IMG/VR virus record: IMGVR_UViG_3300027679_000006
Location: 1 to 57,058 of that record
Reading direction: 5' to 3' (one strand)
Source: a virus
Lineage: Duplodnaviria > Caudoviricetes
Length of the DNA: 57,058 nt
Below are positions 1,400-57,058 of this stretch, in pieces. A program made the translations under genes and the position numbers. Under the pieces are notes generated by a model. The model was given only the letters and a program-made list of their open reading frames with translations, was not told where the DNA came from and made no database searches. Every line of letters starts with the position of its first letter. Positions within the stretch are counted from its first letter, which is position 1.

Positions 1400-1401
1400 G
1401 A

Positions 1402-1809: not shown

Positions 1810-1821
1810 GATGTTCTCCTA

Positions 1822-2595: not shown

Positions 2596-2669
2596 GGTTT
2601 CCTACCTTTCCGGGGAGTGCCCCGCTGATGTGGCATATCATACACGATGTAACAAAAGACCTCAAGCCT

Positions 2670-42006: not shown

Positions 42007-42007
42007 A

Positions 42008-42733: not shown

Positions 42734-42790
42734 CAAACACATGCAAACAATCTTCCGTCGCGGACGGAAGATTGAGAATGGAGGTGAGGC

Positions 42791-44194: not shown

Positions 44195-44312
44195 GGTCAT
44201 CACGCCCCAGATGCGCCTCTGAAGTCATCACAACTTCGGAGGGAGATGTACTCAACCCCCAGGGGAAACCTTGGGGGTTGTTTTTCCCCCAAAACAGCCT
44301 AAGGAGCCCACC

Positions 44313-44615
44313 ATGCACCAAGACAGCCCCTCCACCCAAATCGCCGCTCTCCGTGGCTCTAAGGACCTTCTCCTGGAGTTCTGGGCCCCTTGGTGCGAGC
44401 CGTGTAAGCGCACGATGCCAGAAGTAGACCGTTTCGCAGCCCACAACCCTGACATCACCGTCATCAAAGTAAACGTGGATGCCGAGCGAGCCCTCACTAC
44501 GGAGTGGGAAGTACGCACTATCCCGATGATGGTCTACGTACCGGTAGACGGAGCCCCACGCGCGATCCTTGGCTTTACCCGTGCCGAAGATATCGAAAAA
44601 AAAATTAGGGGATAG
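44313..44615 (+). CDS. thioredoxin
   Basis: FWAPWCEPCK active site; KVNVD; IP; AAGGAG SD. Confidence 0.9.
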   Translation: MHQDSPSTQIAALRGSKDLLLEFWAPWCEPCKRTMPEVDRFAAHNPDITVIKVNVDAERALTTEWEVRTIPMMVYVPVDGAPRAILGFTRAEDIEKKIRG

Positions 44616-44712
44616 GGGTATCAGGGGGGTTCTTTCCCAGCGGGAAGTAGGGGGTTGACACTCGATCCTTGCGTTTGGGAGAAAAAATCTAGGTGCAGCC
44701 TTTACACGCCGC

Positions 44713-44742
44713 AACCCCCCGCCCTGAACGGGCGAGGGGGTT
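44713..44742 (-). terminator. hairpin at the convergent junction of replication module and cassette array
   Basis: AACCCCCTCGCCC-GTTCA-GGGCGGGGGGTT on minus strand. Confidence 0.5.
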
Positions 44743-44759
44743 GGGCACTATGAGCGCGC

Positions 44760-44837
44760 CTATAACGCGCCACCTAATAGATCGCCGATAACGCCGCCGA
44801 CAAAAACGACGACGATGATGATGATGAGCACTTCCAC
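44760..44837 (-). CDS. 25-aa hydrophobic micropeptide (cassette A)
   Basis: GGAG-5nt-GTG; MEVLIIIIVVVFVGGVIGDLLGGAL. Confidence 0.5.
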   Translation of the reverse strand: MEVLIIIIVVVFVGGVIGDLLGGAL

Positions 44838-44894
44838 GATTTCTCCATTTCTGGCGGCGACGCGCCGCCCCGAAGGGCGACGCGCCGCGCGCCG

Positions 44895-45152
44895 CTAGAA
44901 CTTGTTTAGCATCTCCACGCGAGCCGCTGCGAGGGCTGCGTGAGCATCGCACGCGGCATCCTGCCGCGTGAATCGCGTGATCGCCGAGCCGTCAAGCGAC
45001 GCTGTGCGCTTCGCTGCGTGCCAAGCGGTTTCCACGATCCACGACGCCGCCGCGCCGCAAGTTCGTGGCGTCTTGCCGAAGGCTTCGTGCCGCACCATTA
45101 CGACTGCGCCGCAAACGCGCGGCTGCTGCTCTGGCAGTTTCGTGATCCTCAT
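44895..45152 (-). CDS. hypothetical Cys/His protein (cassette A)
   Basis: AAGGGGG SD; MRITKLP...CDAHAA. Confidence 0.7.
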   Translation of the reverse strand: MRITKLPEQQPRVCGAVVMVRHEAFGKTPRTCGAAASWIVETAWHAAKRTASLDGSAITRFTRQDAACDAHAALAAARVEMLNKF

Positions 45153-45199
45153 TGTGAACCCCCTTCGTATTGTTGCGCGGGGCATCTCCCCGACTCCTA

Positions 45200-45232
45200 T
45201 ACAATGCCAGACGCCGAAACCTACTATGGAGC
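45200..45232 (-). promoter_or_regulatory. cassette motif copy A
   Basis: GCTCCATAGTAGGTTT-CGGCGTC-TGGCATTGTA. Confidence 0.85.
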
Positions 45233-45313
45233 AGGGGCGCGGCGCGGCGTGCTGCGGCGTGCTGCGGCGTGCGGCATCGCTGCGGTGTCTGGCGCGGTGT
45301 CTGGGGTGTCGCG

Positions 45314-45390
45314 CATTACGCATTACACATAACGGATAACACATAACGGATAACACCTAACGCATAACGGATAACGCATAGGGCATAACG
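45314..45390. repeat. 7-bp tandem array (CATAACN)x11
   Basis: cattacg cattaca cataacg gataaca cataacg gataaca cctaacg cataacg gataacg cataggg cataacg. Confidence 0.9.
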
Positions 45391-45395
45391 AAGAA

Positions 45396-45427
45396 GCGGC
45401 GACGACCCCCGAAGGGATCGCCGCCGC
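45396..45427 (-). terminator. C(UUCG)G hairpin ending cassette B
   Basis: GCGGCGGCGATCCC-TTCG-GGGGTCGTCGCCGC then TTCTT; G-U pairs only on minus strand. Confidence 0.75.
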
Positions 45428-45433
45428 TCTTCT

Positions 45434-45586
45434 TCATCGCACGATGGCGACGACGAGGTGCGCCAAGAAATACGCCGCCGCCGCGCTGATGGCGTACCAC
45501 GCCATACGCCCGACGAAGGCGCGATTCTTGCGCTCCTGCTCAATCTCCGCATAGGTGCGAAGGCTGATGATTGTTTTCCGATTCAT
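45434..45586 (-). CDS. 50-aa membrane-anchored protein (cassette B)
   Basis: GAGGG SD; MNRKTIISLRTY...AWYAISAAAAYFLAHLVVAIVR. Confidence 0.6.
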   Translation of the reverse strand: MNRKTIISLRTYAEIEQERKNRAFVGRMAWYAISAAAAYFLAHLVVAIVR

Positions 45587-45644
45587 ACTTTCCCTCTCTC
45601 TCTGCGACGACGCGCCGCCCCGAAGGGCGACGCGCCGCCGCGCT

Positions 45645-46097
45645 CTACTTTACAAACTCCTCGCCGTTCACAACGACCGACGAGATGCGCTCTAAACCAT
45701 AGGCGCGGTGTGAGTGCCGCTCGCCCTTGCCGTAGCACGACGATCCTTCGCGGGAAGCGTAGGGGCAAGCCGTTGCCTCGCCGTACTCGTTCATCGCGTA
45801 GACGAGGAAGCCGAGCGACTGCGTGCCCTTCTTGGATAGGCGTACTGGATCGCCGCCGCCCCACGCGGGATCGGGGCGACCGCTGACGCGCACGACCGAG
45901 ATCGTGCCGCCGTCTACCTCGTGCGTGCTGATTGTCTGCTGCGCGGCGAAGGTGTGCCCTTCTACGCTCTTGCCCTTTGCGTCAATGGCGCGCTTTACGA
46001 GCACCTTCTCGCTCGTTGGAAGCGTGCTCGCCACGAGGGTGAACACGCGCCCCTTCGCCGCTGCGATTGCGGCGCGGATCTGCTCTGCTGTTGCCAT
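45645..46097 (-). CDS. hypothetical protein, paralog of 52040..52492 (cassette B)
   Basis: AAGGAG SD; 150 aa; shares AKGR, TISVV, EYG.ATACPY...SC....RH.HR. Confidence 0.8.
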   Translation of the reverse strand: MATAEQIRAAIAAAKGRVFTLVASTLPTSEKVLVKRAIDAKGKSVEGHTFAAQQTISTHEVDGGTISVVRVSGRPDPAWGGGDPVRLSKKGTQSLGFLVYAMNEYGEATACPYASREGSSCYGKGERHSHRAYGLERISSVVVNGEEFVK

Positions 46098-46141
46098 AGT
46101 GCGCTCTCCTTCCATACTGCGGGGAAGCCCCCCGACTCCTA

Positions 46142-46174
46142 TACAATGCCACGCCGCCAAACCTACTATGGAGC
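46142..46174 (-). promoter_or_regulatory. cassette motif copy B
   Basis: GCTCCATAGTAGGTTT-GGCGGCG-TGGCATTGTA. Confidence 0.85.
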
Positions 46175-46258
46175 AGGGCGACGAGGGGCGGCGCGGCATC
46201 GCTCGCTGCGTTGTGTCGCCCCTGCTGCGGTGCTGCGCCTCGCCTGTATGAGGTAAGG

Positions 46259-46328
46259 CATAACCCATAACGCATAAGCCATAACGCGTAAGGCATAAGC
46301 CATAACACATAAGACATAAGCCATAAAC
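46259..46328. repeat. 7-bp tandem array (CATAASN)x10
   Basis: cataacc cataacg cataagc cataacg cgtaagg cataagc cataaca cataaga cataagc cataaac. Confidence 0.9.
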
Positions 46329-46370
46329 GAAACGGCGGCGACACCCCCGAAGGGATGCCGCCGCCGCCTC

Positions 46371-46757
46371 TTAGATCGTGCGCCCGTCGTACATCGGGAA
46401 GCCGCCATCGTTGAGCACGCGCTCAATCTTGGCGATTTCCGAATCCGTGAAGCCGCGCAACTCGTCATCGTGTACGAGCGCACAATCTCCCGCGATTGTG
46501 TAATACGGAGCCGCCGATTCTGCAACCGCGCGAACATCCGCCGCCGTCATATTGCGGCGCGGATTCTGTACGAGAAGCCCCTCTTCATCGCACAGGAGCA
46601 CGACAGGCACGCCGCCAATCTTGCCCCGTGATGCAACCTCAACGAGATTGCAACCGATTGCGTTGTAGACATCCTGCAAGCCCTTGCCGTGTTCCGTCTT
46701 CGTGATGCGATGCGTGCCATCTTCTAGCGCGCGAATCACGAACATCAAACCTGCCAT
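46371..46757 (-). CDS. DUF3846-like protein (cassette C)
   Basis: LQ.VY.AIG...VE, CDEEGLL...N..A, IAGD..L motifs; AAGGAGG SD. Confidence 0.7.
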   Translation of the reverse strand: MAGLMFVIRALEDGTHRITKTEHGKGLQDVYNAIGCNLVEVASRGKIGGVPVVLLCDEEGLLVQNPRRNMTAADVRAVAESAAPYYTIAGDCALVHDDELRGFTDSEIAKIERVLNDGGFPMYDGRTI

Positions 46758-46851
46758 AGTGTGCCTCCTTGTTTGTGTGTTTGTGCTCCCCCTATTGGTT
46801 CACCCGCCAGACGCGGGGGGAGCGATCGCGTACTAGCGGAAGCGTCGGCGT

Positions 46852-47070
46852 TTAGCCGATACGAAGCCGCGACCCGACGACCGCCGCGTGCGCCTCGCAG
46901 ATACCGATCTGCGCGCGCCCTGCGATCGTGTAGGTTGCGGGCTTCTCGCATACGCCGCTGTAATCACAGCGACGAGCGCCGATCGTCTTCATCGGCACGA
47001 AGCCGAAGTAGACGGCGCGCTCCGAGCGGATAGCGCGTGCCGCCACCTGCTCGTTGTGCTTGTTGCCCAT
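46852..47070 (-). CDS. small Cys/His protein (cassette C)
   Basis: GGAGG SD; CDYSGVCEKPA...CEAHAA. Confidence 0.7.
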   Translation of the reverse strand: MGNKHNEQVAARAIRSERAVYFGFVPMKTIGARRCDYSGVCEKPATYTIAGRAQIGICEAHAAVVGSRLRIG

Positions 47071-47111
47071 AGTGCCTCCACTAGGTGCTGCGGAATCTCC
47101 GCCGCTATTCA

Positions 47112-47144
47112 TACAATGCCAGACCTCCAAACCTACTATGGAGC
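47112..47144 (-). promoter_or_regulatory. cassette motif copy C
   Basis: GCTCCATAGTAGGTTT-GGAGGTC-TGGCATTGTA. Confidence 0.85.
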
Positions 47145-47214
47145 GGCGTGCGCCGCTGTGCGCGCGTTGCGGCGCGCCGCTTGTCGCTGTTGTTGTGAAT
47201 CTCTCGCGCATACA

Positions 47215-47270
47215 CATAGGGCATAACACATAACGCCTAACACATAAGCCATAACACATAAGCCATAACA
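47215..47270. repeat. 7-bp tandem array x8
   Basis: cataggg cataaca cataacg cctaaca cataagc cataaca cataagc cataaca. Confidence 0.9.
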
Positions 47271-47324
47271 AAGAAGCGGCGACACCCCCGAAGGGATGCC
47301 GCCGCTTGTTGTTGCCGCCTGTTG

Positions 47325-47573
47325 TTAGCGCGCCAGTTCTACCGCTTCTGCGAGGCGTGCCATCGCCGCGCCTTCATCGTAGAACTCCTCGCGCCCAAAG
47401 ATTTCCGCGCCGCCCTGCGGTGTCGTTGTGTCTACCGATAGTTTCTCAAACACTCCAACCTCAACGAGAATCTCAACATCGCCCTTCTCCTGCGCGGTTT
47501 CCTGCCGCGTGTATCGTGCGAAGGTTGTCGTGCCGCCGTTTGTGTGAATCTGATACCAAGTGTTTCGCTTCAT
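47325..47573 (-). CDS. hypothetical protein, paralog of 52940..53170 (cassette D)
   Basis: AAAGGAG SD; NTWYQIHTNG..TTFAR. Confidence 0.75.
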   Translation of the reverse strand: MKRNTWYQIHTNGGTTTFARYTRQETAQEKGDVEILVEVGVFEKLSVDTTTPQGGAEIFGREEFYDEGAAMARLAEAVELAR

Positions 47574-47629
47574 CGTGTTGCTCCTTTCGCTATGGGGTCG
47601 CGGGGCGACAACGCCGCCCCGCTCCCCGA

Positions 47630-47836
47630 CTACCTGCTCTGTGGCTCGTAGGTGTCCATCCACTCGCCGCAAAGTTTCGTGCGCTCTACCGCCTCTGCGC
47701 CCTTCGCAGTCCTGCTGCTCGTTTCTGGGTCGTTAGTCCACGCGCGAACCTGCGCGATGGTTAGTCCATCGGCGATGGTTTCGCTTGGATACCGCCCCGA
47801 CGCAAACACGCGAACGATTCGGAATAGCGTTTCCAT
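47630..47836 (-). CDS. hypothetical protein (cassette D)
   Basis: AAAGGGG SD; 68 aa. Confidence 0.7.
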   Translation of the reverse strand: METLFRIVRVFASGRYPSETIADGLTIAQVRAWTNDPETSSRTAKGAEAVERTKLCGEWMDTYEPQSR

Positions 47837-47892
47837 CCTGTACCCCTTTCGCTATGGGATCGGGGGGCGGCAACGCCGCCCCCCTTCCCGTG

Positions 47893-48090
47893 TTATCGCC
47901 CCGCTAGGGAAGCGATTGCCGCCGCGCCTTCGGCGCAATCCTCGCAGACTGGAATCTTTACGCCTTCTGGCGAGCCATCGTGGATTCGGATGAAAGTTTC
48001 CGCATCCTCTTCGCATCCGTTTAGGAAGTACTCATCGGCGAGGCAACCAGTACCATCCTCAATGTGTCCCTGTCCCTTGATGTAGGGCAT
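47893..48090 (-). CDS. small zinc-finger protein (cassette D)
   Basis: AAGGAG SD; C..C...CEDC. Confidence 0.7.
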   Translation of the reverse strand: MPYIKGQGHIEDGTGCLADEYFLNGCEEDAETFIRIHDGSPEGVKIPVCEDCAEGAAAIASLAGR

Positions 48091-48133
48091 CTTGTTTCTC
48101 CTTCTTTGTGAGAAGCGTCTGCCTCTCTATCTC

Positions 48134-48166
48134 TACAATGCCAGACTCTCAAACCTACTATGGAGC
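48134..48166 (-). promoter_or_regulatory. cassette motif copy D
   Basis: GCTCCATAGTAGGTTT-GAGAGTC-TGGCATTGTA. Confidence 0.85.
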
Positions 48167-48195
48167 GGCGGAGCCGAAGCCCCGCCGCCGATCCC

Positions 48196-48354
48196 TTACT
48201 TTGCGTATCGCCTACGCTTCATCTCCTCGCGGAAGCGTGCCATCGCCTCGCGCTTTGTGAATCCGTAATAAGTAATGGATTCCGTATAACCTTGATGAAT
48301 AGCAGACACAACCCACGCGCCGTTGTGCCATACGCGCGATGCCGTAATCGTCAT
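48196..48354 (-). CDS. 52-aa hypothetical protein (cassette E)
   Basis: AGGAGG SD; MTITASRVWHNGAWVVSAIHQGYTESITYYGFTKREAMARFREEMKRRRYAK. Confidence 0.7.
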   Translation of the reverse strand: MTITASRVWHNGAWVVSAIHQGYTESITYYGFTKREAMARFREEMKRRRYAK

Positions 48355-48418
48355 AACAACCTCCTAGTGTTGGCGGCGGAGCCGAAGCCCCGCCGCCGTT
48401 GTTGGGCGGATGCGCCGC

Positions 48419-48655
48419 CTACGCGTTGTTGCGTTGGCGAACTTCTTCCGCCGCGATAGCGATGAGAGAGTCTACGAGGTACAAGCGAATCTGCTCAACC
48501 GCGAGCAGCCGCTTCTCCACGCAACCCTTCACATCGCACGATGCGATTTCGGCGCACGAGCCTTCTGGCTCGTTGTACACAATCGCCTTGGCGATGCCGA
48601 TGATCGCCGCCTCAATCTGGTGAGGCTCCAACGGGTGATTCTTGCCGTATTGCAT
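48419..48655 (-). CDS. hypothetical protein (cassette E)
   Basis: GAGGAGG SD; 78 aa. Confidence 0.7.
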   Translation of the reverse strand: MQYGKNHPLEPHQIEAAIIGIAKAIVYNEPEGSCAEIASCDVKGCVEKRLLAVEQIRLYLVDSLIAIAAEEVRQRNNA

Positions 48656-48700
48656 ACGACCTCCTCAATGTGCGAGCGGTATCGCCGCTCCCGATGAATA

Positions 48701-48733
48701 CACTATGCCAGACACTCAAACCTACTATGGAGC
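48701..48733 (-). promoter_or_regulatory. cassette motif copy E
   Basis: GCTCCATAGTAGGTTT-GAGTGTC-TGGCATAGTG. Confidence 0.85.
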
Positions 48734-48813
48734 AGGCAACGCAACGAGATACGCAACGCAACGGCGCGCAAACAACAACGAAGAATCTGCGCGCGAGCGC
48801 ATATGCCTATATG

Positions 48814-48855
48814 CGTAAGTCATAACCCATAACGCGTAAGGCATAACAAATAACA
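48814..48855. repeat. 7-bp tandem array x6
   Basis: cgtaagt cataacc cataacg cgtaagg cataaca aataaca. Confidence 0.85.
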
Positions 48856-48893
48856 AAGGGGGGCAACCGCCGAAGCGGTCGCCCCCCTTTTAT

Positions 48894-48953
48894 CTATTCG
48901 CTCAACGAAGCCAAGACCACAAGGATCAGCATCGTTGCGATGATTACTTCCAC
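48894..48953 (-). CDS. 19-aa hydrophobic micropeptide (cassette F)
   Basis: GTG start overlapping upstream ORF end; MEVIIATMLILVVLASLSE. Confidence 0.4.
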   Translation of the reverse strand: MEVIIATMLILVVLASLSE

Positions 48954-49108
48954 TTATCTCGCCGCGCCTCGGCGATCTCACGCTTGCGGTCATCAGCGCG
49001 CTTCTCACGGCGATGCTTCTCGCAGCAATCACCATCAGCAGCAGGTCGCTTCGTCCAACGGACGGAGTGCTCTGGGATGGCGATCTTCTCAACATTTCTC
49101 CGATTCAT
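48944..49108 (-). CDS. 54-aa basic protein (cassette F)
   Basis: AGGAGG SD; MNRRNVEKIAIPEHSVRW...CCEKH. Confidence 0.6.
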   Translation of the reverse strand: MNRRNVEKIAIPEHSVRWTKRPAADGDCCEKHRREKRADDRKREIAEARRDKWK

Positions 49109-49168
49109 ACACCCTCCTATGTGGCTCGCGGCGGCGGAGCCGAAGCCCCGCCGCCGTCCGCCGATTGT

Positions 49169-49498
49169 TTAGGCGACGACTTCTGTCGCCGACTCCGCTA
49201 GTTCCAGAACATCGCTCTGGTCTGCGTTGTCCTCCAACGCGCTGCGAATCTTGGCGATGATTGCCGTCAGTCGCTCGTTCTCGGCGACCACCTCGGCGAC
49301 CATCTCCTCAACCGAGTCCAGAACTTCCTGAACCTCATCGGCGTAGGATTCAGCAGAACCCGCCGAATCACTTGCCGAGTCAGCGTAGGACTGCGCGTCC
49401 TGTGCCTCGGATGCGGCATCCTGCGCCGCTGACGATGCGCGCTCCGCGCTGCGGCGTGCCTCCGCTAGGATGTCCGTGAGTTTCTGTGTGTCGGTCAT
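49169..49498 (-). CDS. acidic Ala/Ser-rich coiled-coil protein (cassette F)
   Basis: GAGGAGG SD; 109 aa. Confidence 0.75.
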   Translation of the reverse strand: MTDTQKLTDILAEARRSAERASSAAQDAASEAQDAQSYADSASDSAGSAESYADEVQEVLDSVEEMVAEVVAENERLTAIIAKIRSALEDNADQSDVLELAESATEVVA

Positions 49499-49544
49499 AA
49501 GACCTCCTCACTTGGGAAGTGATCACAGCACCTCCTCTACTTCA

Positions 49545-49577
49545 TACAATGCCAGACCCTGAAACCTACTATGGAGC
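49545..49577 (-). promoter_or_regulatory. cassette motif copy F
   Basis: GCTCCATAGTAGGTTT-CAGGGTC-TGGCATTGTA. Confidence 0.85.
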
Positions 49578-49661
49578 AGCCTCGCCCACGGATCGCTGCG
49601 ACTCTAACAACGACGAGCCACGGCAATGCGACGCGTGTTGATAAGTTTGTATGCGTATATG

Positions 49662-49703
49662 GATAACTCATAACCCATAACACATAACGCATAGCCCATA
49701 AAC
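49662..49703. repeat. 7-bp tandem array x6
   Basis: gataact cataacc cataaca cataacg catagcc cataaac. Confidence 0.85.
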
Positions 49704-49756
49704 GCAATGAGGGGGAGCAAGAGCCGAAGCCCTCACTCCCCCTCATCACTCCGCGA

Positions 49757-50302
49757 CTAGCGCGAGGTCGCCCCCGCGTACGCCGCGTCGCCCTTCACCC
49801 ACACGGCGAAGGTCATCGCGTCAGCATCGCGCACCCAGAAACTAATCCCCTGCGCGAAGAGGTTAGAGGTCGGGTCAGCGATGACCGTCACCTCACACGG
49901 TAGCGTGCCATCTTCGCACGCTGCCTGAATCTTCACGCCGAGGTCTTGCCCCTCAGTTCGCTCGCCCCAGAGTAGAAGATCCTCTTCTACCTCAGTCCAC
50001 CCGTTCACGAAGACCGTATCGTAATGACCGCGCCACGCTGACGATGCGCGCCACTCACGCTTCCAGTTGGAAGCGTCAACAGGCTCGCCGTACTCAGGAT
50101 CAAGTGCCACGAGATCGCCCAAGATGATTTTGCTCACCTCGCCAATCGGCGTGAACAGCGTGATCATTGAGGCGTGCTCAGTATCGGACTGCCAACACGC
50201 GGAGCAAATCTGATCTTCCAAGATGTTGGAATACTCAGCGTAGTCCGACTCAATCTCTTCGCCACAGCGCGGTGCTGCGCAGATCACTTTATCGCTCTTC
50301 AT
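49757..50302 (-). CDS. hypothetical protein with N-terminal zinc finger (cassette G)
   Basis: GAGGAGG SD; CAAPRC...CSAC; 181 aa, acidic. Confidence 0.75.
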   Translation of the reverse strand: MKSDKVICAAPRCGEEIESDYAEYSNILEDQICSACWQSDTEHASMITLFTPIGEVSKIILGDLVALDPEYGEPVDASNWKREWRASSAWRGHYDTVFVNGWTEVEEDLLLWGERTEGQDLGVKIQAACEDGTLPCEVTVIADPTSNLFAQGISFWVRDADAMTFAVWVKGDAAYAGATSR

Positions 50303-50340
50303 TAGACCTCCTCTGCTGCGGGGAACTTCCCCGATGTATG

Positions 50341-50373
50341 TACTATGCCACGCCGCCAAACCTACTATGGAGC
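50341..50373 (-). promoter_or_regulatory. cassette motif copy G
   Basis: GCTCCATAGTAGGTTT-GGCGGCG-TGGCATAGTA. Confidence 0.85.
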
Positions 50374-50450
50374 AATCTTCCGCAGCAGCCGATTCGCCCC
50401 GCAGACCTGAATCCAACAGCAAGTTGGTAGCGCGCGTATACACATATAGG

Positions 50451-50485
50451 CATAACCCATAACACATAACGCATAACAAATAACA
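50451..50485. repeat. 7-bp tandem array x5
   Basis: cataacc cataaca cataacg cataaca aataaca. Confidence 0.85.
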
Positions 50486-50527
50486 AGAGGGCGACAGAGC
50501 CGAAGCCCTGCCGCCCTCTTGTTGTGC

Positions 50528-50938
50528 CTACGCCGCTCCGACGAGGCTTGGCTCCTTGACGAGAATCTTCGTGTGCTCGTCTGGCGGCAACACTACTTCT
50601 AGTCCGTGCTTGCGGAAGAAGTGCTGCGCGATGCTTGGCATATCCTTACCCGACCAACCGATATAAACATCGGTCGCACCCCTAATGTGATCTTGGTCGT
50701 GGTAGAAGATGAACATCGGATCGTCGTAGAACGCCTCGTCGTAGTCGTTGCCCGACTCGTCAGCAATCGCCTTCTGATCCGCCTTGTACTCTTCCCAGAG
50801 TTCGTAGCCTTGTGCCGCCGAGCAGGTGGTACAGCACCACCGACTCGCCTGCGTATGACCAAGCACGAACGCGACGGAAGATGAATCAATCTCCTTCATC
50901 GCTGCGTTCACCTTTGCCCAGAATCCTTTGCCGCTCAT
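50528..50938 (-). CDS. DUF6891-like protein (cassette H)
   Basis: WCCTTC, FIFYHDQD, YIGW, HGLEV motifs; GAGGAGG SD. Confidence 0.55.
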   Translation of the reverse strand: MSGKGFWAKVNAAMKEIDSSSVAFVLGHTQASRWCCTTCSAAQGYELWEEYKADQKAIADESGNDYDEAFYDDPMFIFYHDQDHIRGATDVYIGWSGKDMPSIAQHFFRKHGLEVVLPPDEHTKILVKEPSLVGAA

Positions 50939-51081
50939 AGAGCCACCTCCTCGGCTACTCGCCACGAATCTGCTTGCGCGGCATCTGCCGCAGTCCAAGC
51001 CTCCTCCTTACACGCCTCGCACACCATTGCGACATCCTCGCCGTTCACCACCACATCGTCAGAACCACAGATTCGGCACAT
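50935..51081 (-). CDS. 48-aa zinc-finger protein (cassette H)
   Basis: AAGGAGG SD; CRIC...CEAC. Confidence 0.65.
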   Translation of the reverse strand: MCRICGSDDVVVNGEDVAMVCEACKEEAWTAADAAQADSWRVAEEVAL

Positions 51082-51122
51082 CTCGCACCTCCTTGCTATG
51101 CGGAACATCTCCGCTACTTCTA

Positions 51123-51155
51123 CATAATGCCACCCCGCCAAACCTACTATGGAAC
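51123..51155 (-). promoter_or_regulatory. cassette motif copy H
   Basis: GTTCCATAGTAGGTTT-GGCGGGG-TGGCATTATG. Confidence 0.85.
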
Positions 51156-51233
51156 AGACAACGCAAACACCCGCCGCTGACCGAAGCCAACGACGGGTGA
51201 TCGTTTCGCGTGTATCCGTTATATGTATATACA

Positions 51234-51261
51234 CATAACGCATAACCCATAACCACTAACT
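51234..51261. repeat. 7-bp tandem array x3-4
   Basis: cataacg cataacc cataacc actaact. Confidence 0.7.
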
Positions 51262-51390
51262 CTCCTGCGGGTGCTCGCAGTTCTCTGACTGCTCCAACTC
51301 GTAGCACGCGTTATCCCGAACGGGATTGTCTACACACTCGCAGACAATCTCCGTTCGTTCGCACTCATCGCACCAAACCTTCGTGCTCAT
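51256..51390 (-). CDS. 44-aa Cys-rich protein (cassette I)
   Basis: GGGAG SD; CDEC...CEC...C...CEH. Confidence 0.55.
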   Translation of the reverse strand: MSTKVWCDECERTEIVCECVDNPVRDNACYELEQSENCEHPQES

Positions 51391-51599
51391 AGGACTCCCG
51401 TTCCGCCGCAGCCGCAGATGCCATCTTCGCAACTCGCGCCTTCCGAAAGAAGTAAGGCGCACCCGTGCTTCTCAGCGCGGTGCTCCTCGCACGATTCGCA
51501 GTAGGCGTATGGAATACCAGAAGCATTGTTGTCTGCGATGAACGCTGCCTGACCATCAACGCAGAAGTCGCACATCATTGACTCCGTTGGCTTGCTCAT
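51387..51599 (-). CDS. Cys-rich protein (cassette I)
   Basis: AGGAGGAG SD; CDFC, CESC, C..GICGC. Confidence 0.65.
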   Translation of the reverse strand: MSKPTESMMCDFCVDGQAAFIADNNASGIPYAYCESCEEHRAEKHGCALLLSEGASCEDGICGCGGTGVL

Positions 51600-51647
51600 T
51601 GCTCCTCCTTCCGCGTCGGGGAGAGGCTCGCGCCTCTCCCCTTCGCA

Positions 51648-51929
51648 CTAATCCTCGTCTGGCTCGCCGCCGACGAACGCCGCCAAGTAGAGGGACTGAA
51701 TCACCACCCAAGCAGGAACTTGCGAACCATACTTGCGGTGCTCCGCGCCCTCTGGCATCTCCACCATCTCGTCTGACTCACCCGCTTCCGCAAGTGCGAG
51801 TGCCGCCTTCGCAGGGGCAATCATCATCAGCGGGACTGGCGGGTAGCAGTTCGTCGTGAAGTGCCAATGAAGTTTCGTGTCCAAGTCCAACTCCGTATCC
51901 GCGATACCGAGTGCCGTTGCGTATCCCAT
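51648..51929 (-). CDS. hypothetical protein (cassette I)
   Basis: AAGGAGG SD; L.WH...N.YPPVP. Confidence 0.75.
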   Translation of the reverse strand: MGYATALGIADTELDLDTKLHWHFTTNCYPPVPLMMIAPAKAALALAEAGESDEMVEMPEGAEHRKYGSQVPAWVVIQSLYLAAFVGGEPDED

Positions 51930-51973
51930 ACGAACCTCCTTCGCTACTCGTCAGGGAATCTCCCTGACTACTT

Positions 51974-52006
51974 CATAATGCCAGAGTCTAAAACCTACTA
52001 TGGAGC
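51974..52006 (-). promoter_or_regulatory. cassette motif copy I
   Basis: GCTCCATAGTAGGTTT-TAGACTC-TGGCATTATG. Confidence 0.85.
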
Positions 52007-52039
52007 AGCGGGGGGAGGCGCAACCCTCCCCCCTCATCA

Positions 52040-52492
52040 TCAGGCGAACGACTCGCCTGCGATGATGATCTCCTGAACGCGCCCTGCGTTCACCGAGCGA
52101 TGCGCGTGTCGCTTGCCGCGCAACTCGCACGACGCACCCTCTTTGCCAGAGTACGGACACGCCGTAGCGAAGCCGTATTCCTCTGGCGCACCACCGACGA
52201 TGCTGAACGACAACCCACCATCTTTGCCAATGTGGAAGCCGTCTACGCCGTAGTGCTTGTCCAACTGACCGACAATCTGAACGACGCTGATTGTCCACCC
52301 GCGCTCATCGGTGCGAGTGCTCAATGTCTTGACCATCGGGATCGCCGCCTTCGCGTCAGGTGCGACGCTTGCCGCCGCCTTTGCGATGCGCCGCGCCATC
52401 TCGGCGGGACTGACTGGTGCGGTTTCCGTGATGACCTTGACGAAGCGACCCTTCGCCGAGCGCATCACCTTGACCACTTGTTCGTGCTCCAT
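52040..52492 (-). CDS. hypothetical protein, paralog of 45645..46097 (cassette J)
   Basis: AAGGAGG SD; 150 aa. Confidence 0.8.
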   Translation of the reverse strand: MEHEQVVKVMRSAKGRFVKVITETAPVSPAEMARRIAKAAASVAPDAKAAIPMVKTLSTRTDERGWTISVVQIVGQLDKHYGVDGFHIGKDGGLSFSIVGGAPEEYGFATACPYSGKEGASCELRGKRHAHRSVNAGRVQEIIIAGESFA

Positions 52493-52532
52493 CTGAACCT
52501 CCTTGCTACGCAGGGAACCTCCCTGACTTCTC

Positions 52533-52565
52533 TACAATGCCAGAGTCGCAAACCTACTATGGAGC
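52533..52565 (-). promoter_or_regulatory. cassette motif copy J
   Basis: GCTCCATAGTAGGTTT-GCGACTC-TGGCATTGTA. Confidence 0.85.
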
Positions 52566-52575
52566 GAGAAGCCGA

Positions 52576-52634
52576 TGCCATCTGTATGGCACGAGGATTG
52601 CCATCTGTATGGCACGAGTGCCAAGTGTGTGGCA
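52576..52634. repeat. three tandem TGCCA-N6-TGGCA palindromes
   Basis: 52576-52591, 52599-52614, 52619-52634. Confidence 0.85.
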
Positions 52635-52648
52635 CAACTCTCGCGCGC

Positions 52649-52725
52649 TATTACGCATTAGGCATAACCCATAACACATAACACATAAGTCATAACGCAT
52701 AAGGCATAACCAATAACAAATAAAA
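52649..52725. repeat. 7-bp tandem array x11
   Basis: tattacg cattagg cataacc cataaca cataaca cataagt cataacg cataagg cataacc aataaca aataaaa. Confidence 0.9.
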
Positions 52726-52765
52726 AGGGGAGCCGCACCAGACACCACATCTGGTACGACTCCCC
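52722..52765 (-). terminator. intrinsic terminator of cassette K
   Basis: GGGGAGTCGTACCAGAT-loop-GTCTGGTGCGGCTCCCC then TTTTTA. Confidence 0.75.
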
Positions 52766-52769
52766 AAGC

Positions 52770-52935
52770 CTATCGCGGCTGTGACGCTTATCCCATTTCT
52801 GAGGCGGTCATTGGGCTTTCGCTTGTCCGCTGCTGACTGAGCCCCCTCTGGTTAGGAGTCCGACCAATCAGTCCTTATCGTCGCGGGTAGTTCTTCGTCT
52901 ACCAACTAGCCGCCCTGCACGCGGCACGGATACAC
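52770..52935 (-). ncRNA. candidate structured non-coding RNA
   Basis: About 165 nt with no credible ORF between last gene and terminator; nested helices and a GAAA tetraloop. Confidence 0.45.
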
Positions 52936-52939
52936 AGGA

Positions 52940-53170
52940 TTACTCAGCGAGAGTTCGTGCAATCTTCACGCGGTTGATTGCCGCCGTGAGTTCATCATAC
53001 TCCTCTTCGCCGAAGACCTCAATCAACTTGTTCACGCTGTCCGCTTGCATCTTCTCAAAGACAAAGATCGCTGCACCTGCATCGCTCTTGCCTTCGTAGA
53101 AGCGAGCGAAGGTTGTGACCGCTCCGTTCGTGTGAATCTGATACCAAGTGTTCGCTTGTTCTCCGTACAT
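52940..53170 (-). CDS. hypothetical protein, paralog of 47325..47573 (cassette K)
   Basis: AAAGGAG SD; NTWYQIHTNGAVTTFAR. Confidence 0.75.
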   Translation of the reverse strand: MYGEQANTWYQIHTNGAVTTFARFYEGKSDAGAAIFVFEKMQADSVNKLIEVFGEEEYDELTAAINRVKIARTLAE

Positions 53171-53221
53171 CTTGTTCTCCTTTCTTGCGAGGGGAGCGGC
53201 GAGTGCCGCCCCCCTCGTAGT

Positions 53222-53665
53222 TTACTTCGCCGCTGTGAGGTCAGCGAGTTGCTGACTCAGGTCGCGGTAATCGTACTTGCCATCTTCGTTGAACAACTTG
53301 TCCACGAAGGGGCGAATCTCGTCTGAGATGTCCTTGAACTTCGTCGGCTCACCGATGTCGCTCAACGCCTCAGCCCAACCCGCTGGCAGGTCGCTCTCCT
53401 CGTAGTAGTCGCCGATGACTGCTACGCGGTCGCCGTGCCAACGCCCCTTGAACACGCCGTTCGTGAACTCAGGGAAGTCCGAGTTGTCGTTTGCCCAGTC
53501 GCCGCCGCCGCGCGCCTCCTTGTAGGCACAGAGCACATACAGGATGTCGGCAAGCGAACCGCCGCCGTACCCTGAGTGCTCACGCTGCTTCGCGCCGAAG
53601 CCGAGGTCGTGCGGATTCACAACCTCCAACTTGTCTAGATTGAAGAGTGAGTGATACTGACCCAT
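53222..53665 (-). CDS. hypothetical protein (cassette K)
   Basis: AAGGAGG SD; MGQY...NLDK.E...GRW.GDRV..IGDY. Confidence 0.75.
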   Translation of the reverse strand: MGQYHSLFNLDKLEVVNPHDLGFGAKQREHSGYGGGSLADILYVLCAYKEARGGGDWANDNSDFPEFTNGVFKGRWHGDRVAVIGDYYEESDLPAGWAEALSDIGEPTKFKDISDEIRPFVDKLFNEDGKYDYRDLSQQLADLTAAK

Positions 53666-53676
53666 CGTCTACCTCC

Positions 53677-54063
53677 TTACGCTGTGGCTACGAGTTGCGA
53701 GTCAAACGACCCGCTTCGTGCCGAGAACATTGCCCAAAGGTCGCGCGCTTCCTGCTCGCTCAATGGGCGAGCCGCAAGACCTTCCGTGTTGGCGAACAGA
53801 ACGACATCACCTTTGACATCGTGGCTGCTGCCGTTTGAGAACATCCGAAGCAGCGTTGCCCACTCGTTCACAACGCACCACGGCTTGAACTCCCGAACGG
53901 AGTCCGCAACCATCACCCACTTCACACCGCGCATTGAGCCAACCCCAATGATGTCGGTGTAGTCCGCGCCGATGGTCTTGTTGATTGCCTCGTACGAACC
54001 TTCGCTAAACGGCACTAGTTCGGCACGAGTGTGCTCTGCCCGAATCACGATTGCGAACCCCAT
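53677..54063 (-). CDS. DUF3846-like protein (cassette K)
   Basis: I..TIG, VNEWAT, VKGDVVL; same length as 46371..46757; AGGAGG SD. Confidence 0.6.
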   Translation of the reverse strand: MGFAIVIRAEHTRAELVPFSEGSYEAINKTIGADYTDIIGVGSMRGVKWVMVADSVREFKPWCVVNEWATLLRMFSNGSSHDVKGDVVLFANTEGLAARPLSEQEARDLWAMFSARSGSFDSQLVATA

Positions 54064-54072
54064 ACGAACCTC

Positions 54073-54141
54073 CTATCTCTCAACCCGAAGCAGCCAACCA
54101 AACAGCAGCATCAGGAGGATTGCTAAGGTCGTGTCGTTCAT
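54073..54141 (-). CDS. 22-aa hydrophobic micropeptide (cassette K)
   Basis: GAGGAGG SD directly after cassette leader; MNDTTLAILLMLLFGWLLRVER. Confidence 0.65.
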   Translation of the reverse strand: MNDTTLAILLMLLFGWLLRVER

Positions 54142-54174
54142 AGACACCTCCTCTGTCGGAACTTCCGACTCACT

Positions 54175-54207
54175 TACAATGCCAGACTTCTAAACCTACT
54201 ATGGAGC
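54175..54207 (-). promoter_or_regulatory. cassette motif copy K
   Basis: GCTCCATAGTAGGTTT-AGAAGTC-TGGCATTGTA. Confidence 0.85.
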
Positions 54208-54278
54208 AGGCTCAGGGGCAGCGGCAAGGAGGGGTCAGCCGAGACCAACCCAACCCTGCCGTGCCCTTGCGTATATGT

Positions 54279-54320
54279 CATTAGGCATAACCCATAACGC
54301 ATAACGCATAACCAATAACT
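54279..54320. repeat. 7-bp tandem array x6
   Basis: cattagg cataacc cataacg cataacg cataacc aataact. Confidence 0.85.
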
Positions 54321-54618
54321 AGTTCGCTTTGCGCTTCCAATAACCCACAGCAGCGCGAACCGCCGTGCCGCTCTGCGCGCCAATCTTCACGGCAACATCG
54401 TCGTAGGACATCCCACCACTCAACATCAACACAATCTTCTCGTGTTCGTATCGGGATGGTCGCCCTGCTTTCGGTTGACCGAGACCGTTGCGCTTTGCGA
54501 ATTGCGAGACCCATTGGCGAGACACGCCGAACTCGTCGGCAATGTCTCGCTGTCTGGTTCCACTCTTTAACTTGCCGATGACGACTGACTCGTCAAGGAC
54601 AACCTTCTTGCCCATCAC
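54319..54618 (-). CDS. tandem HTH DNA-binding protein (cassette L)
   Basis: RQRDIADEFGVSRQWVSQF, GRPS linker, MSYDDVAVKIG. Confidence 0.75.
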   Translation of the reverse strand: MMGKKVVLDESVVIGKLKSGTRQRDIADEFGVSRQWVSQFAKRNGLGQPKAGRPSRYEHEKIVLMLSGGMSYDDVAVKIGAQSGTAVRAAVGYWKRKAN

Positions 54619-54998
54619 AGAGCACCGACAGTCTTCTGTGCCACCGTGTGCGTCTCGTAGTCTGGTTCCCTGTCGAGGTTGTACACATAGACCGAAGCCT
54701 CTGCCTCTGGGTCTGCTGCGTACACCGCCTCGACGATCTTCTCGCCGAAGCGATCAGACAGAACATCCCACGCGACTGACAACGACTTCGTGTAGACATC
54801 GAACGAGTAGGTTGGATAGTCATCCCACGCGCTCGTGTCTGCGAAGGTGTAATCAGAACCGAACATCGCGTTCTTATCTGATGTTGCGTCTGGAAGCCCA
54901 GTCCCGAGAAGCGCAAGGTGTACGGCAGAGACCACCGCATCCTTCTTCTCGTGACTGACTCCCTTGACCGTAATGTTCACTTCTACTGATGCGCTCAC
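54615..54998 (-). CDS. hypothetical protein (cassette L)
   Basis: GAGGAGG SD, GTG start; 127 aa. Confidence 0.7.
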   Translation of the reverse strand: MSASVEVNITVKGVSHEKKDAVVSAVHLALLGTGLPDATSDKNAMFGSDYTFADTSAWDDYPTYSFDVYTKSLSVAWDVLSDRFGEKIVEAVYAADPEAEASVYVYNLDREPDYETHTVAQKTVGAL

Positions 54999-55360
54999 TT
55001 GCTCACCTCCTCTTCGCTACACGCGCAGTCAAACTTCGGATTGAAGCAATGACTACACGGATGTTCGTCTGTTTTGTGTACGGAGAGAATCCCTCCACAC
55101 ATCGACGACATTGGATTGAAGCACCACCCCTGTTGCGCTGCTGCCCTGTCGGACATAAACGGCGGATGGAACTCGCACTCACACGGAGCGCAGTCCAAGC
55201 AGTACAAGGAGTAGCCCTCTGGAACTCCATCCTTGTACTGATTGAAATCAAGCAGGTCGAACCGCGTATTCGGTTCGCCGTTCCAAGTACCGACGACCTT
55301 CTCGTCGTCGTAGAACACCATCGTGCCGCAGTCGCAGCACTTGTCCATCTGTCCGCTCAT
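54995..55360 (-). CDS. Cys-rich protein (cassette L)
   Basis: GAGGAGG SD; CCDC, CLDC, CEC, CSHC, CAC. Confidence 0.65.
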   Translation of the reverse strand: MSGQMDKCCDCGTMVFYDDEKVVGTWNGEPNTRFDLLDFNQYKDGVPEGYSLYCLDCAPCECEFHPPFMSDRAAAQQGWCFNPMSSMCGGILSVHKTDEHPCSHCFNPKFDCACSEEEVSK

Positions 55361-55878
55361 ACAACCTCCTCTTCCTTCTCCTCTGGCAAGCAACCATCGC
55401 AGTACGGATTGCCGTTCATCGTCAGCACGCCGTCTGCTGTTGCCCAAATCACATCGTCTTCGGTGAGGTCGGTGTCGCACTCGTGGCACGAGTACTCCTT
55501 CTCCTCATCCTCTTCGACATCCTCTTCCTCTTCGTCGGGAACGAAGACCACTTCGAGACGCTCAATGCGACCCTCGTGGTTGTAGTGCGCGTAAACTGGA
55601 TACTGACCATCGCCGTAGCCGCTGCTCACCGCTACCGCGCTGCCGTTGCCCAACTCACCCGCGCTGTTATCCGAGAGCGTCGCAGCGCAAGCACCGCTGT
55701 ACGAGTACTCAAACTCGTTCGCGGTCTTCTGTGCCTCGACCTCTCCCTCTACCCACTCGAAGCCGTCAGACGACTTCTTGCCGTAGTCGCTGAGATAGCA
55801 AGGGTCGCCGACCATCACCATCCCCGCATCAACACCGACTCGCCCGACGAGCCACTTGCCGTTCTTGCGATCTGCCAT
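55357..55878 (-). CDS. DUF4241-like protein with C-terminal zinc ribbon (cassette L)
   Basis: VGVDAG...DPCY, SSGYGDG.YPVY motifs; CHEC...CDGC; AAGGAGG SD. Confidence 0.65.
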   Translation of the reverse strand: MADRKNGKWLVGRVGVDAGMVMVGDPCYLSDYGKKSSDGFEWVEGEVEAQKTANEFEYSYSGACAATLSDNSAGELGNGSAVAVSSGYGDGQYPVYAHYNHEGRIERLEVVFVPDEEEEDVEEDEEKEYSCHECDTDLTEDDVIWATADGVLTMNGNPYCDGCLPEEKEEEVV

Positions 55879-55922
55879 TTGTGTGCCTCCTTCCAACTAC
55901 GAGGGAACGCCCCTCACTCAAC

Positions 55923-55955
55923 TACAATGCCACACCCTGAAACCTACTATGGAGC
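55923..55955 (-). promoter_or_regulatory. cassette motif copy L
   Basis: GCTCCATAGTAGGTTT-CAGGGTG-TGGCATTGTA. Confidence 0.85.
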
Positions 55956-56027
55956 AAGAAGAAAGGGGGGAGCCAAGCCGAAGCCTGACTCCCCCCTTGT
56001 TCTTATGTGATCTTCTAGCGCGTTATG

Positions 56028-56062
56028 GATTAGGCATAACCCATAACCCATAACCGATAACT
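56028..56062. repeat. 7-bp tandem array x5
   Basis: gattagg cataacc cataacc cataacc gataact. Confidence 0.85.
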
Positions 56063-56877
56063 CAACCCCCGACGATGCCGCCGAAGTGCTCATCGCAGAA
56101 CGCTTCCATCGCGTTCGCGGGAACCTTGTCGTAGTCGCGCTCATAACCACGCGACCCATCTGCCTCTGCGATGTACGCCTCGTCTGGCAACGAATCGCCA
56201 AACTCGTAGTCATCACGCGAGACCTCTTCGCCGTTGAGGTAGACCACCTGACCTGCGTACCCCATACCGCCTTCGCAATAGCGATGCGTAATGGAGAGCG
56301 TTGGAAACTGCTTTGCGAGAGCAGCGACCACAGGCTCGGCAGGCGACCACGCCGTGTCGAAGTTGTACGAGGTATCACCCTCGATTGTCTGATCGTTGTC
56401 TACTCGGTCGTGCCACACTTCCGCCGCGTTCCACTTGGCTCCCCAGTTCTTCACATTCCAGTTGTACCACCAGTCTGGGTGTGAAGAAATCTTCGGAGCG
56501 TCGCACTTTGGGCAGACTTCCGAGCCGCCAAACATCTTCTCCACTACAACTTCGATTGTGCCGTTGTCGAGATTCTTCTTCACGACTGGGAGACCATCGA
56601 CAGCCCAGTAGCCTTCCTGTGGCTCAAAGCCGTGTTCCTTCTCGTACTCGTGTCCCTCGGCTCCCTTCACCATTTCTTTGGTGATGACAAACTCTGGGTG
56701 GCAACCGCAAAGGAAATCATTCTGACTCTCGTTGGCTGCGTAGAACTTGTTCTCTGGGACTGGGACAATCTTGGAGAAGTCGAACCCATCGTCTTCACCC
56801 TTGACTGCCTCGATTAGCCTGACGATCTCTGCCTCGTTGCCTGTAATGTCTAGTTGATTCGCGCACCAGTTAGGCAT
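56062..56877 (-). CDS. DUF1281/YubB-like ferredoxin-fold protein (cassette M)
   Basis: MPNWC.N.L.I.G, WY.WN..NWG.KW, FDTAWSP, FP.L.....Y.E.GM motifs. Confidence 0.8.
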   Translation of the reverse strand: MPNWCANQLDITGNEAEIVRLIEAVKGEDDGFDFSKIVPVPENKFYAANESQNDFLCGCHPEFVITKEMVKGAEGHEYEKEHGFEPQEGYWAVDGLPVVKKNLDNGTIEVVVEKMFGGSEVCPKCDAPKISSHPDWWYNWNVKNWGAKWNAAEVWHDRVDNDQTIEGDTSYNFDTAWSPAEPVVAALAKQFPTLSITHRYCEGGMGYAGQVVYLNGEEVSRDDYEFGDSLPDEAYIAEADGSRGYERDYDKVPANAMEAFCDEHFGGIVGG

Positions 56878-56920
56878 TTGCTTCCTCCTTCCAAACTGCG
56901 GGACATCCCCGCTACTTCTC

Positions 56921-56953
56921 TACAATGCCATAGCCTCAAACCTACTATGGAGC
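56921..56953 (-). promoter_or_regulatory. cassette motif copy M
   Basis: GCTCCATAGTAGGTTT-GAGGCTA-TGGCATTGTA. Confidence 0.85.
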
Positions 56954-57031
56954 ACTCTATACATTATGTAATGTTCGCCAAAGAGCAATGCGCCGAGAAG
57001 CCCGTAGGCAACCCGACGCATACTCTTTATG

Positions 57032-57058
57032 CATGATGCATAACGCATAACACATTAG
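57032..57058. repeat. 7-bp tandem array, truncated by window end
   Basis: catgatg cataacg cataaca cattag. Confidence 0.7.

Follow-up and report, generated by a model that had tools for sequence, protein, structure and literature searches.

The DNA analysed here (the window) is the whole of a viral contig of 57,058 nt, IMGVR_UViG_3300027679_000006 (Caudoviricetes), which is linear and was estimated to be 66% complete, for a genome of ~85 kb. The window encodes a ParB-like protein, an adaptor, an SU10-type capsid protein, a prohead protease and a portal, and a plus-strand replication module at 40.0-44.6 kb carries genes for an exonuclease, an initiator, a DnaC-like loader, SSB and thioredoxin. 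Beyond this module, 13 promoter-terminator cassettes follow one another on the minus strand in a one-directional array that coincides with a block of DNA purged of short palindromes. This purged array is the subject of our study.

The 13 units share one order on the minus strand: a terminator hairpin, GTTATGN heptads, a 36-nt promoter-like element, a short hairpin, GGAGG and one to four small genes. The array genes have strong ribosome-binding sites. All 13 copies of the 36-nt element fall within the purged block, and the sole other match in the window, at 28123, carries two mismatches. The tandem heptads form 11 arrays, and the window terminates within the heptads of the first unit (Table 1).

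Table 1. Features of the cassette array and its edges, and counts of ten palindromic 4-mers against their Markov expectation
Feature	Position	Strand	Evidence and remarks
Palindrome-purged block	44700..57025		whole cassette array with spacers; 0 ACGT, AGCT, CATG, CCGG, GGCC, CCWGG, GGWCC, CASTG and GTWAC; near-0 AATT, TTAA and ACWGT
Promoter-like element GCTCCATAGTAGGTTT-N7-TGGCAT(T/A)nT	45200..56954	-	36 nt, 13 copies; repeat families D3 and D4; cores at 45217, 46159, 47129, 48151, 48718, 49562, 50358, 51140, 51991, 52550, 54192, 55940 and 56938
Tandem 7-nt repeats GTTATGN	45303..57058	-	3-10 units; family D1; between terminator and next promoter; 45303-45396, 46248-46334, 47211-47276, 48796-48861, 49658-49709, 50433-50484, 51230-51267, 52652-52731, 54275-54326, 56024-56061 and 57021-57058
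Thioredoxin gene	44313..44615	+	Pfam Thioredoxin, E 7.5e-17; final gene of the replication module and of ordinary-density DNA
G+C-rich hairpin, bidirectional terminator	44705..44745		between convergent units; downstream edge of array and purge
Upstream purge edge	57021..57058		ordinary sites return: TGCA 57030, CATG 57032, TGCA 57037
DUF1281_C (Api92/YubB-like) gene, 271 aa	56062..56877	-	Pfam E 5.8e-14; pI 4.37, net charge -30; first gene of the array in the window
DUF4241 gene, 173 aa	55357..55878	-	Pfam E 3.3e-9; pI 4.05, net charge -31; 24% Asp+Glu; second cassette gene
Small basic helix-turn-helix protein	54319..54618	-	Pfam HTH_23, E 2.8e-6; PHROG transcriptional repressor, E 3.2e-5; pI 10.2
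DUF3846 gene	46371..46757	-	Pfam E 8.3e-9; cargo family in 6/6 arrays scanned
ACGT	44616-57020		observed 0, expected 45
AGCT	44616-57020		observed 0, expected 32
CATG	44616-57020		observed 0, expected 53.5
CCGG	44616-57020		observed 0, expected 46
GGCC	44616-57020		observed 0, expected 61
AATT	44616-57020		observed 1, expected 15.6
TTAA	44616-57020		observed 1, expected 12.6
TGCA	44616-57020		observed 11, expected 56
TCGA	44616-57020		observed 17, expected 78
ATAT	44616-57020		observed 10, expected 29

The purge was first recognized by eye. The initial annotation had placed the last GGCC at 44384, the last CCWGG at 44372 and the last CCGG at 44541, with no later copy to 57058, and a recount found each of these positions exact: all three sites are absent from 44546-57058, having occurred 165 (GGCC), 158 (CCGG) and 108 (CCWGG) times before 44546. 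Its description of GCGC, CGCG and GATC as plentiful in the same interval was likewise borne out (142, 152 and 44 copies, respectively), and observed/expected counts of k-mers, which it had put forward as a check, revealed a depletion that is both regional and palindrome-specific. The purge is broader and stronger than that first description. GGWCC, CCSGG and ACGT are also missing from the block (60, 49 and 113 copies upstream), CATG (1, at 57032), TTAA (1) and AATT (2) are close to zero, TCGA has a gap from 44662 to 54673, and 13 copies of TGCA were observed against 56 expected. Taken together, the 14 palindromic 4-mers that remain when GCGC and CGCG are set aside reach 4-19/kb in the block versus 26-50/kb elsewhere. 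The 3.66 kb of spacers within the array contain no ACGT, AGCT, CATG, CCGG, GGCC, AATT, TTAA or TCGA; as genes and spacers are equally clean, what is constrained is the entire DNA segment, which argues against selection on proteins or codons.

Some sites are missing on a larger scale. AGCT does not occur anywhere in the 57-kb window, against ~143 + 32 (~175) expected copies, and the window also lacks TCGCGA, CCGCGG, CCTAGG and GCTAGC. These words constitute a second, genome-wide tier of avoidance, a tier that the more distant relatives described below (G003-G009) do not have.

To separate the purge from base composition, we compared observed counts with maximal-order Markov expectations for the 136 strand-symmetrised 4-mers in the region 44616-57020. 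The ten lowest observed/expected ratios all belong to palindromes (Table 1), and GTAC, GCGC, CGCG, TATA and CTAG lie near expectation. Interrupted palindromes are depleted in the same way, with observed/expected counts in the array of 0/20 for CASTG, 0/21 for CCWGG, 0/17 for GGWCC, 0/17 for GTWAC and 1/16 for ACWGT, as are 6-mers built on tolerated 4-mer cores (GGCGCC 0/9, AGCGCT 0/5, TGCGCA 1/8.5). More than 20 distinct words have been purged from the array. A second null model, in which synonymous codons were shuffled 500 times among the 26 called array genes (8628 nt) with proteins and codon usage kept, gave the same picture: not one of the 500 shuffles came down to the observed count for GGCC, CCGG, CCWGG, GGWCC, ACGT, CATG, AGCT, TCGA, TGCA, AATT or TTAA, and GGCC, absent from the genes, averaged 34 copies in the shuffles. 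The control sites GCGC (487/500), CGCG (422/500), GTAC (232/500) and CTAG (80/500) fell inside the null distribution, and GATC was mildly low (2/500). The array is richer in G+C (57.8% versus 53.2%).

A search with the portal protein returned 135 viral contigs, of which the best 80 of 135 were kept and nine long ones fetched (G001-G009). A low-palindrome-density block of 10-17 kb is present in all ten genomes, the window included, and in the window and G001-G005, in which open reading frames (ORFs) were called, this block is a one-directional array of small genes. The bounds of the relatives' arrays are approximate, and that of G001 takes in ~1 kb of backbone. Low in all six tabulated arrays are AATT, ACGT, TGCA, TCGA, TTAA, GGWCC, GTWAC and ACWGT. 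Other sites depend on the lineage: the G003 array retains CCGG (98 observed/88 expected), GGCC (86/78) and AGCT (35/48), and genome-wide counts indicate that G006 and G009 also retain these three. AGCT has been lost genome-wide from the window, G001 and G002 (0 copies in the latter two), and from the array only in G004 (4/54 in the array versus 221/278 outside) and G005 (8/51 versus 228/253). CGCG, GCGC, GTAC, CTAG, TATA, GANTC and GCNGC are never purged in the window or the relatives tabulated. Such differing site sets would be expected from differing repertoires of host enzymes.

The relatives also define the edges of the block. The initial annotation had expected a functional boundary at 44.6-44.75 kb, and it is here that the plus-strand replication module meets the minus-strand array at the terminator hairpin. 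The 3' end of the thioredoxin gene holds the final ACGT (44536) and CCGG (44541), and the final ordinary sites before the hairpin are TCGA at 44662, CTAG at 44689 and TGCA at 44694. Homology to G001 and G002 is interrupted at 44593-44595, and at this downstream edge no junction or 'stop' element is conserved among the window and these two genomes. Between the stop codon of the thioredoxin gene and the terminator, positions 44616-44700 contain G-rich heptad-like repeats (GGGGATAGGGGTATCAGGGGGG) and TTGACA; this stretch is missing from G001 and G002, which have extra backbone sequence there instead. At the other end of the block, ordinary sites return ~70 nt upstream of the first promoter of the array. 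G002, whose portal is 80% identical to that of the window, contains the whole window array and a further 2.4 kb past this upstream edge, encoding a RadC-like protein and a small one on the same strand, and this additional DNA has an ordinary palindrome density. The purge is thus bounded on both sides and fits the array exactly.

Within these bounds the cassettes themselves are fluid. Comparison with relatives whose portals are 97% and 80% identical shows that cassettes have come, gone and changed order; G001 (97%) has partly different cassettes in a different order past 44593. In metagenome contigs, cassettes that lie far apart in the window are linked precisely at a promoter or heptad repeat (46152 to 51228 and 48143 to 52663, for example), which looks like the shuffling described for the promoter-stem-loop (PeSL) modules of T4-type phages, with graph ambiguity at repeats as the alternative. 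No close DNA relative was found among cultured phages by megablast, and no cultured phage has a portal or terminase with more than 27% identity, so that no termini or packaging type can be borrowed from a characterized system.

The promoter-like element of G002 has the same downstream block, TGGCAT(T/A)nT, joined to a wholly different 16-17-nt upstream box (GCTCCATAGTAGGTTT in the window versus CCTTAKCGGTGGGATCG in G002), although the cassette genes of the two genomes are 80-96% identical (G002 L107:5098-13727). The shared block looks like an extended -10 motif, and the divergence of the box suggests a putative phage-specific recognition factor that co-evolves with it. No other viral contig carried the element of the window in a viral contig search from which the window's own record was possibly excluded. 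Canonical sigma-70 promoters were considered for the window array and rejected, as matches showed no excess over shuffles; the cassettes of G005 carry host-type promoters (CTTGAC-N17-TAcAAT). The heptad design has been kept between relatives with a differing unit, which is GTTATGN in the window and G002 (L107:2307-13621) and GGGGTNT and ATGAATG in G003 (L089:5912-11521), as if the heptads were putative binding-site arrays for a lineage-specific factor. Just upstream, in the minus-strand sense, of the promoter at 52550, positions 52576-52638 hold three tandem copies of a 20-nt unit with the inverted repeat TGCCAT-N4-ATGGCA, an arrangement that looks operator-like.

The cargo is poorly connected to known proteins. 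Pfam and PHROG scans of the 26 array proteins returned only a few family matches: DUF1281_C, DUF4241, DUF3846, helix-turn-helix and a weak zinc ribbon. DUF3846 is the sole cargo family found in all six arrays scanned (the window and G001-G005), DUF1281_C occurs in four of the six, and DUF932, RadC-JAB, DUF4241 and DUF7249 recur. DUF1281_C homologues are the first or second called gene at the upstream array end in G002, G004 and G005. The atlas neighbours of the 271-aa DUF1281_C protein are viral DUF1281_C clusters, one of them auto-named YubB-like and one fused to a polyvalent-protein domain. Of the 26 array proteins, 12 fall below pI 4.6, versus 2 of 23 backbone proteins, and the acidity of the first two array proteins is a hint compatible with DNA-mimic inhibitors, which proves nothing. 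A sequence search of solved structures with these two proteins yielded nothing informative. DUF3846 and DUF932 may be residents of anti-restriction islands; among the matches listed in our literature search, no paper tied either family to anti-restriction or to leading regions. The basic helix-turn-helix protein is a candidate regulator of the array. Family scans detected no nuclease inside the array; among the 26 array proteins no PHROG or Pfam match named dmp, A1 or A2; and neither the window nor the complete relative G005 (75 ORFs of at least 100 aa) yielded a DNA methyltransferase, a known DNA-modification family or an RNA polymerase family. G005 encodes two glycosyltransferases.

Type II restriction pressure leaves just this signature, a loss that is specific to palindromes and varies with lineage, and the selective agent is almost certainly restriction enzymes acting on one segment only. 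A purge of one segment pays only if that segment alone is exposed, so the array would act before the phage is protected; the remainder of the genome keeps hundreds of sites, and something must therefore protect it. We consider it probable (roughly 0.7) that the block is an early accessory-gene array that has been cleared by selection of short type II targets and is exposed before the rest of the genome. Such an array would be in the cell, and expressed, before the remaining DNA is at risk. It would most likely be first in, as the initial annotation had proposed, and be read inward from the 57-kb side, after which its products may safeguard the site-rich remainder; one possible route is a staged entry that starts from a fixed end, as happens with T5 or T7. 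One-directional arrays, strong ribosome-binding sites and the host-type promoters of G005 support a putative early-type design. More tentatively, it is possible that a T5-like two-step strategy arose independently in an unrelated lineage of freshwater tailed phages. In this reading a ~12-kb terminal segment, possibly a long terminal repeat, would be transferred first, would be proof against practically every short type II target, and would express broad novel inhibitors that render the site-rich remainder safe. The acidic DUF1281_C and DUF4241 proteins at the upstream end would be the prime candidates for such inhibitors.

The rival explanations each account for part of the evidence. Restriction enzymes of the host could have selected for the purge with no staged entry at all, the rest of the genome having another shield, such as DNA-binding proteins injected with it or a modification from which the array is left out. 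The sequence itself sets no order of entry, the virion proteins include giants of 5545 and 2207 aa, some of which could leave the particle along with the DNA, and G005 encodes two glycosyltransferases. We nonetheless regard this explanation as unlikely, given the lack of a methyltransferase or known DNA-modification family in the window and G005, and because a shield or modification that stops exactly at a transcription-unit boundary in 10/10 genomes is less simple than an order in time. The purge might instead avoid early nuclease(s) of the phage itself that destroy host DNA, in which case just the DNA in the cell during their action would have to be free of the sites. Davison raised this idea for T5 protein A1, proposing that the first-transferred DNA of T5 lacks sites for a phage nuclease (bioRxiv 10.1101/866236). 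An HNH endonuclease-like ORF is present at 38639-38932, and AGCT, TCGCGA and CCGCGG are missing window-wide, as if one agent acted on the entire genome. More than 20 purged words, in sets that differ between close relatives, are too many specificities for a few phage nucleases, and with no nuclease family detected within the array we find the idea improbable.

It is also conceivable that the cassettes form a mobile pool shared among phages of many hosts, and so avoid the union of the enzymes of those hosts regardless of position or time of entry. The unusual breadth of the purge would fit such a pool, as would the reordering, loss and replacement of cassettes between relatives and the contigs that join cassettes at the conserved repeats. 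Avoidance in part of a genome is useless if the rest is still cut, however, so that differential exposure would still be needed; spacers and conserved regulatory repeats are purged as well, and the site sets track phage lineages, all of which makes this explanation very improbable. Finally, the pattern could arise with no selection by nucleases, from base composition, foreign origin, repeats or assembly. The higher G+C content and the repeat families of the array lend this some initial plausibility, which does not survive closer inspection: the Markov and codon-shuffle nulls exclude composition, palindromes alone are affected, the repeats are short elements confined to 13 cassette junctions, the pattern is found in 10/10 genomes and near-identical sequence occurs in 14 independent DNA runs. 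We therefore judge it barely credible.

Several observations weigh against the preferred reading, that of an early array exposed before the rest of the genome. Matches to the sigma-70 consensus in the window array number 4 against 5.3 expected from shuffles, and the lineage-specific upstream box means that the promoters could need a phage factor and so not be the very first expressed. No known anti-restriction family, including ArdA, Ocr and KlcA, was found by Pfam and PHROG scans of the six arrays. The complete relatives are circular assemblies with arbitrary starts and the window is a fragment, neither of which fixes the order of entry, and the large terminase, at 22-27% identity to those of cultured phages, allows no packaging type to be inferred. 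Contigs from RNA libraries map to parts of both the array and the adjacent replication genes, and carry no timing or strand. T5 has no comparable purge, so the analogy with this phage is one of logic and not of degree.

The ends of the molecule were sought in sequence depth and contig ends. We compared the array with its flanking 2.5 kb (42000-57058) in assembled contigs of the same strain from DNA runs, in which contig depth is not copy number. In X2, depth was 39-70 in the array versus 23-27 in the flanking replication genes (binned means 58 versus 29, ~2.0x), and in X5 it was 8-13 versus 6-9 outside (10.9 versus 6.2, ~1.8x); one X2 contig ends at 44622. The roughly twofold depth is uneven and a weak hint at best, which may come from a long terminal repeat that has collapsed or from mixed strains. 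Among assembled contigs of public metagenome runs covering the array and flank, no molecule ends were found. The 'terminal repeats' of 22-123 nt in G003-G005 were rejected as true ends, as they are assembly overlaps, that of G005 lying inside a gene. Near-identical array sequence (50000-57058; 0.91-0.97 of sampled words) occurs in 14 freshwater metagenome runs from 11 studies between 2017 and 2023, and parts of the array sequence occur in lake metatranscriptome runs. This phage persists in lakes and is widely distributed among them.

The closest functional parallel is the first-step-transfer (FST) region of T5, BF23 and other tequintaviruses, a ~10-kb block of small early genes (NC_005859) whose freedom from sites decides sensitivity to restriction-modification (R-M): according to PMC10644984, Tequintavirus resist type I and type II R-M except where the FST region or the terminal repeat carries sites. 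The array is of similar size (12.4 kb versus 10.2 kb for the T5 FST) and, as in the FST, lacks sites that the rest of the genome tolerates. The initial annotation had taken it as established that the first-transferred DNA of T5 is depleted of restriction sites. This holds in the sense that FST sites decide R-M sensitivity, and is too broad as worded, since no palindromic 4-mer is purged from that DNA. Positions 1-9200 of T5 contain 630 copies of the sixteen 4-mer palindromes against 754 expected, with no single one purged. Palindromic 6-mers number 130 versus 207 expected in the same T5 interval and 58 versus 244 in the window array, or 25 versus 190 with CGCGCG and GCGCGC left out; of the sixteen 4-mers, 9-10 have all but vanished from the window array. 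The T5 FST comprises two divergent operons (NC_005859), whereas the window array has 13 cassettes in one direction; the portal and terminase show no relation to those of T5, and the terminal repeat and two-step entry known from T5 are possibilities in the window. With no dmp, A1 or A2 match in the PHROG and Pfam scans, the array is not a member of the Tequintavirus FST module, and the resemblance is functional.

The T7-like Autographiviridae offer a second comparison, having a variable early region that is read inward in one direction (PMC12455610). In that study R-M motifs matter in the leading region only, anti-defence genes are expected there, and the effect presupposes fixed ends and not headful packaging. 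The window array is one-directional and ends at a terminator; host-type promoters are clear in G005, whereas the window promoters show only an extended -10-like block plus the upstream box. That study concerns single type I motifs, whereas the window array has been cleared of more than 20 type II-like palindromes. No Ocr-like family was detected among the window array proteins, and the ~85-kb genome yielded no RNA polymerase family. With the genome-wide site avoidance of phages, the window shares the selective loss of palindromic type II targets, in the form of the window-wide loss of AGCT, TCGCGA and CCGCGG, but its avoidance is mostly sub-genomic and sharply bounded.

The leading regions of conjugative plasmids resemble the array in that its DUF1281_C cargo has a YubB-like atlas cluster; plasmid DNA enters single-stranded. 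These regions are the first to enter and are rich in anti-defence genes, and in the available text of one preprint their depletion is modest, with fewer 6-bp palindromes in some groups and 4-mers unaffected (bioRxiv 10.1101/2025.04.03.647016). In the PeSL modules of T4-type phages, small non-essential genes lie between promoter and stem-loop modules and are shuffled by recombination (PMC2839356). The window array likewise has small genes flanked by promoter and stem-loop modules, with cassettes reordered in G001 and G002 and joints at repeats. The window cassettes differ in having 7-nt tandem arrays and a lineage-specific promoter box, and a palindrome purge is not mentioned in the part of PMC2839356 that was available.

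Several proteins outside the array have unusual architectures. The giant ORFs of 5545 aa (9308-25945) and 2207 aa (2670-9293) are both on the minus strand, and the 2207-aa fibre ends in a Peptidase_S74 chaperone domain, which is typical of tail fibres. G005 has a 3474-aa ORF with a tape-measure domain (TMP_3); if the 5545-aa ORF is its counterpart, an extremely long tail would be implied. The portal (35650-37854, plus strand) has a C-terminal extension, residues 490-620, that matches polynucleotide-kinase PHROGs, and the prohead protease (33165-34841, minus strand) carries a fused Hva1_TUDOR domain, to which G005 adds a ferritin-like domain.

The purge is real and strongly supported; a known principle appears here in a striking variant form and in a new lineage. 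The concept exists in the literature, and full-text searches found no report of a regional purge this broad. Sub-genomic avoidance was previously seen through single sites in T5-like and T7-like phages; the window shows a near-total purge of 4-6-bp palindromes that is sharply bounded, conserved across the clade and tuned to the lineage. The loss of AGCT genome-wide in one sub-lineage and from the array only in others suggests that some host enzymes escape the protection of late DNA. For uncultured phages, the purge offers a handle on which DNA is exposed first, and hence on fixed ends and the direction of entry, on the restriction specificities carried by hosts, and on where to seek new broad anti-restriction proteins. 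If the two-step strategy proves true, a map of the purge would be a sequence-only read-out of both the first-injected segment and the restriction repertoire of the hosts.

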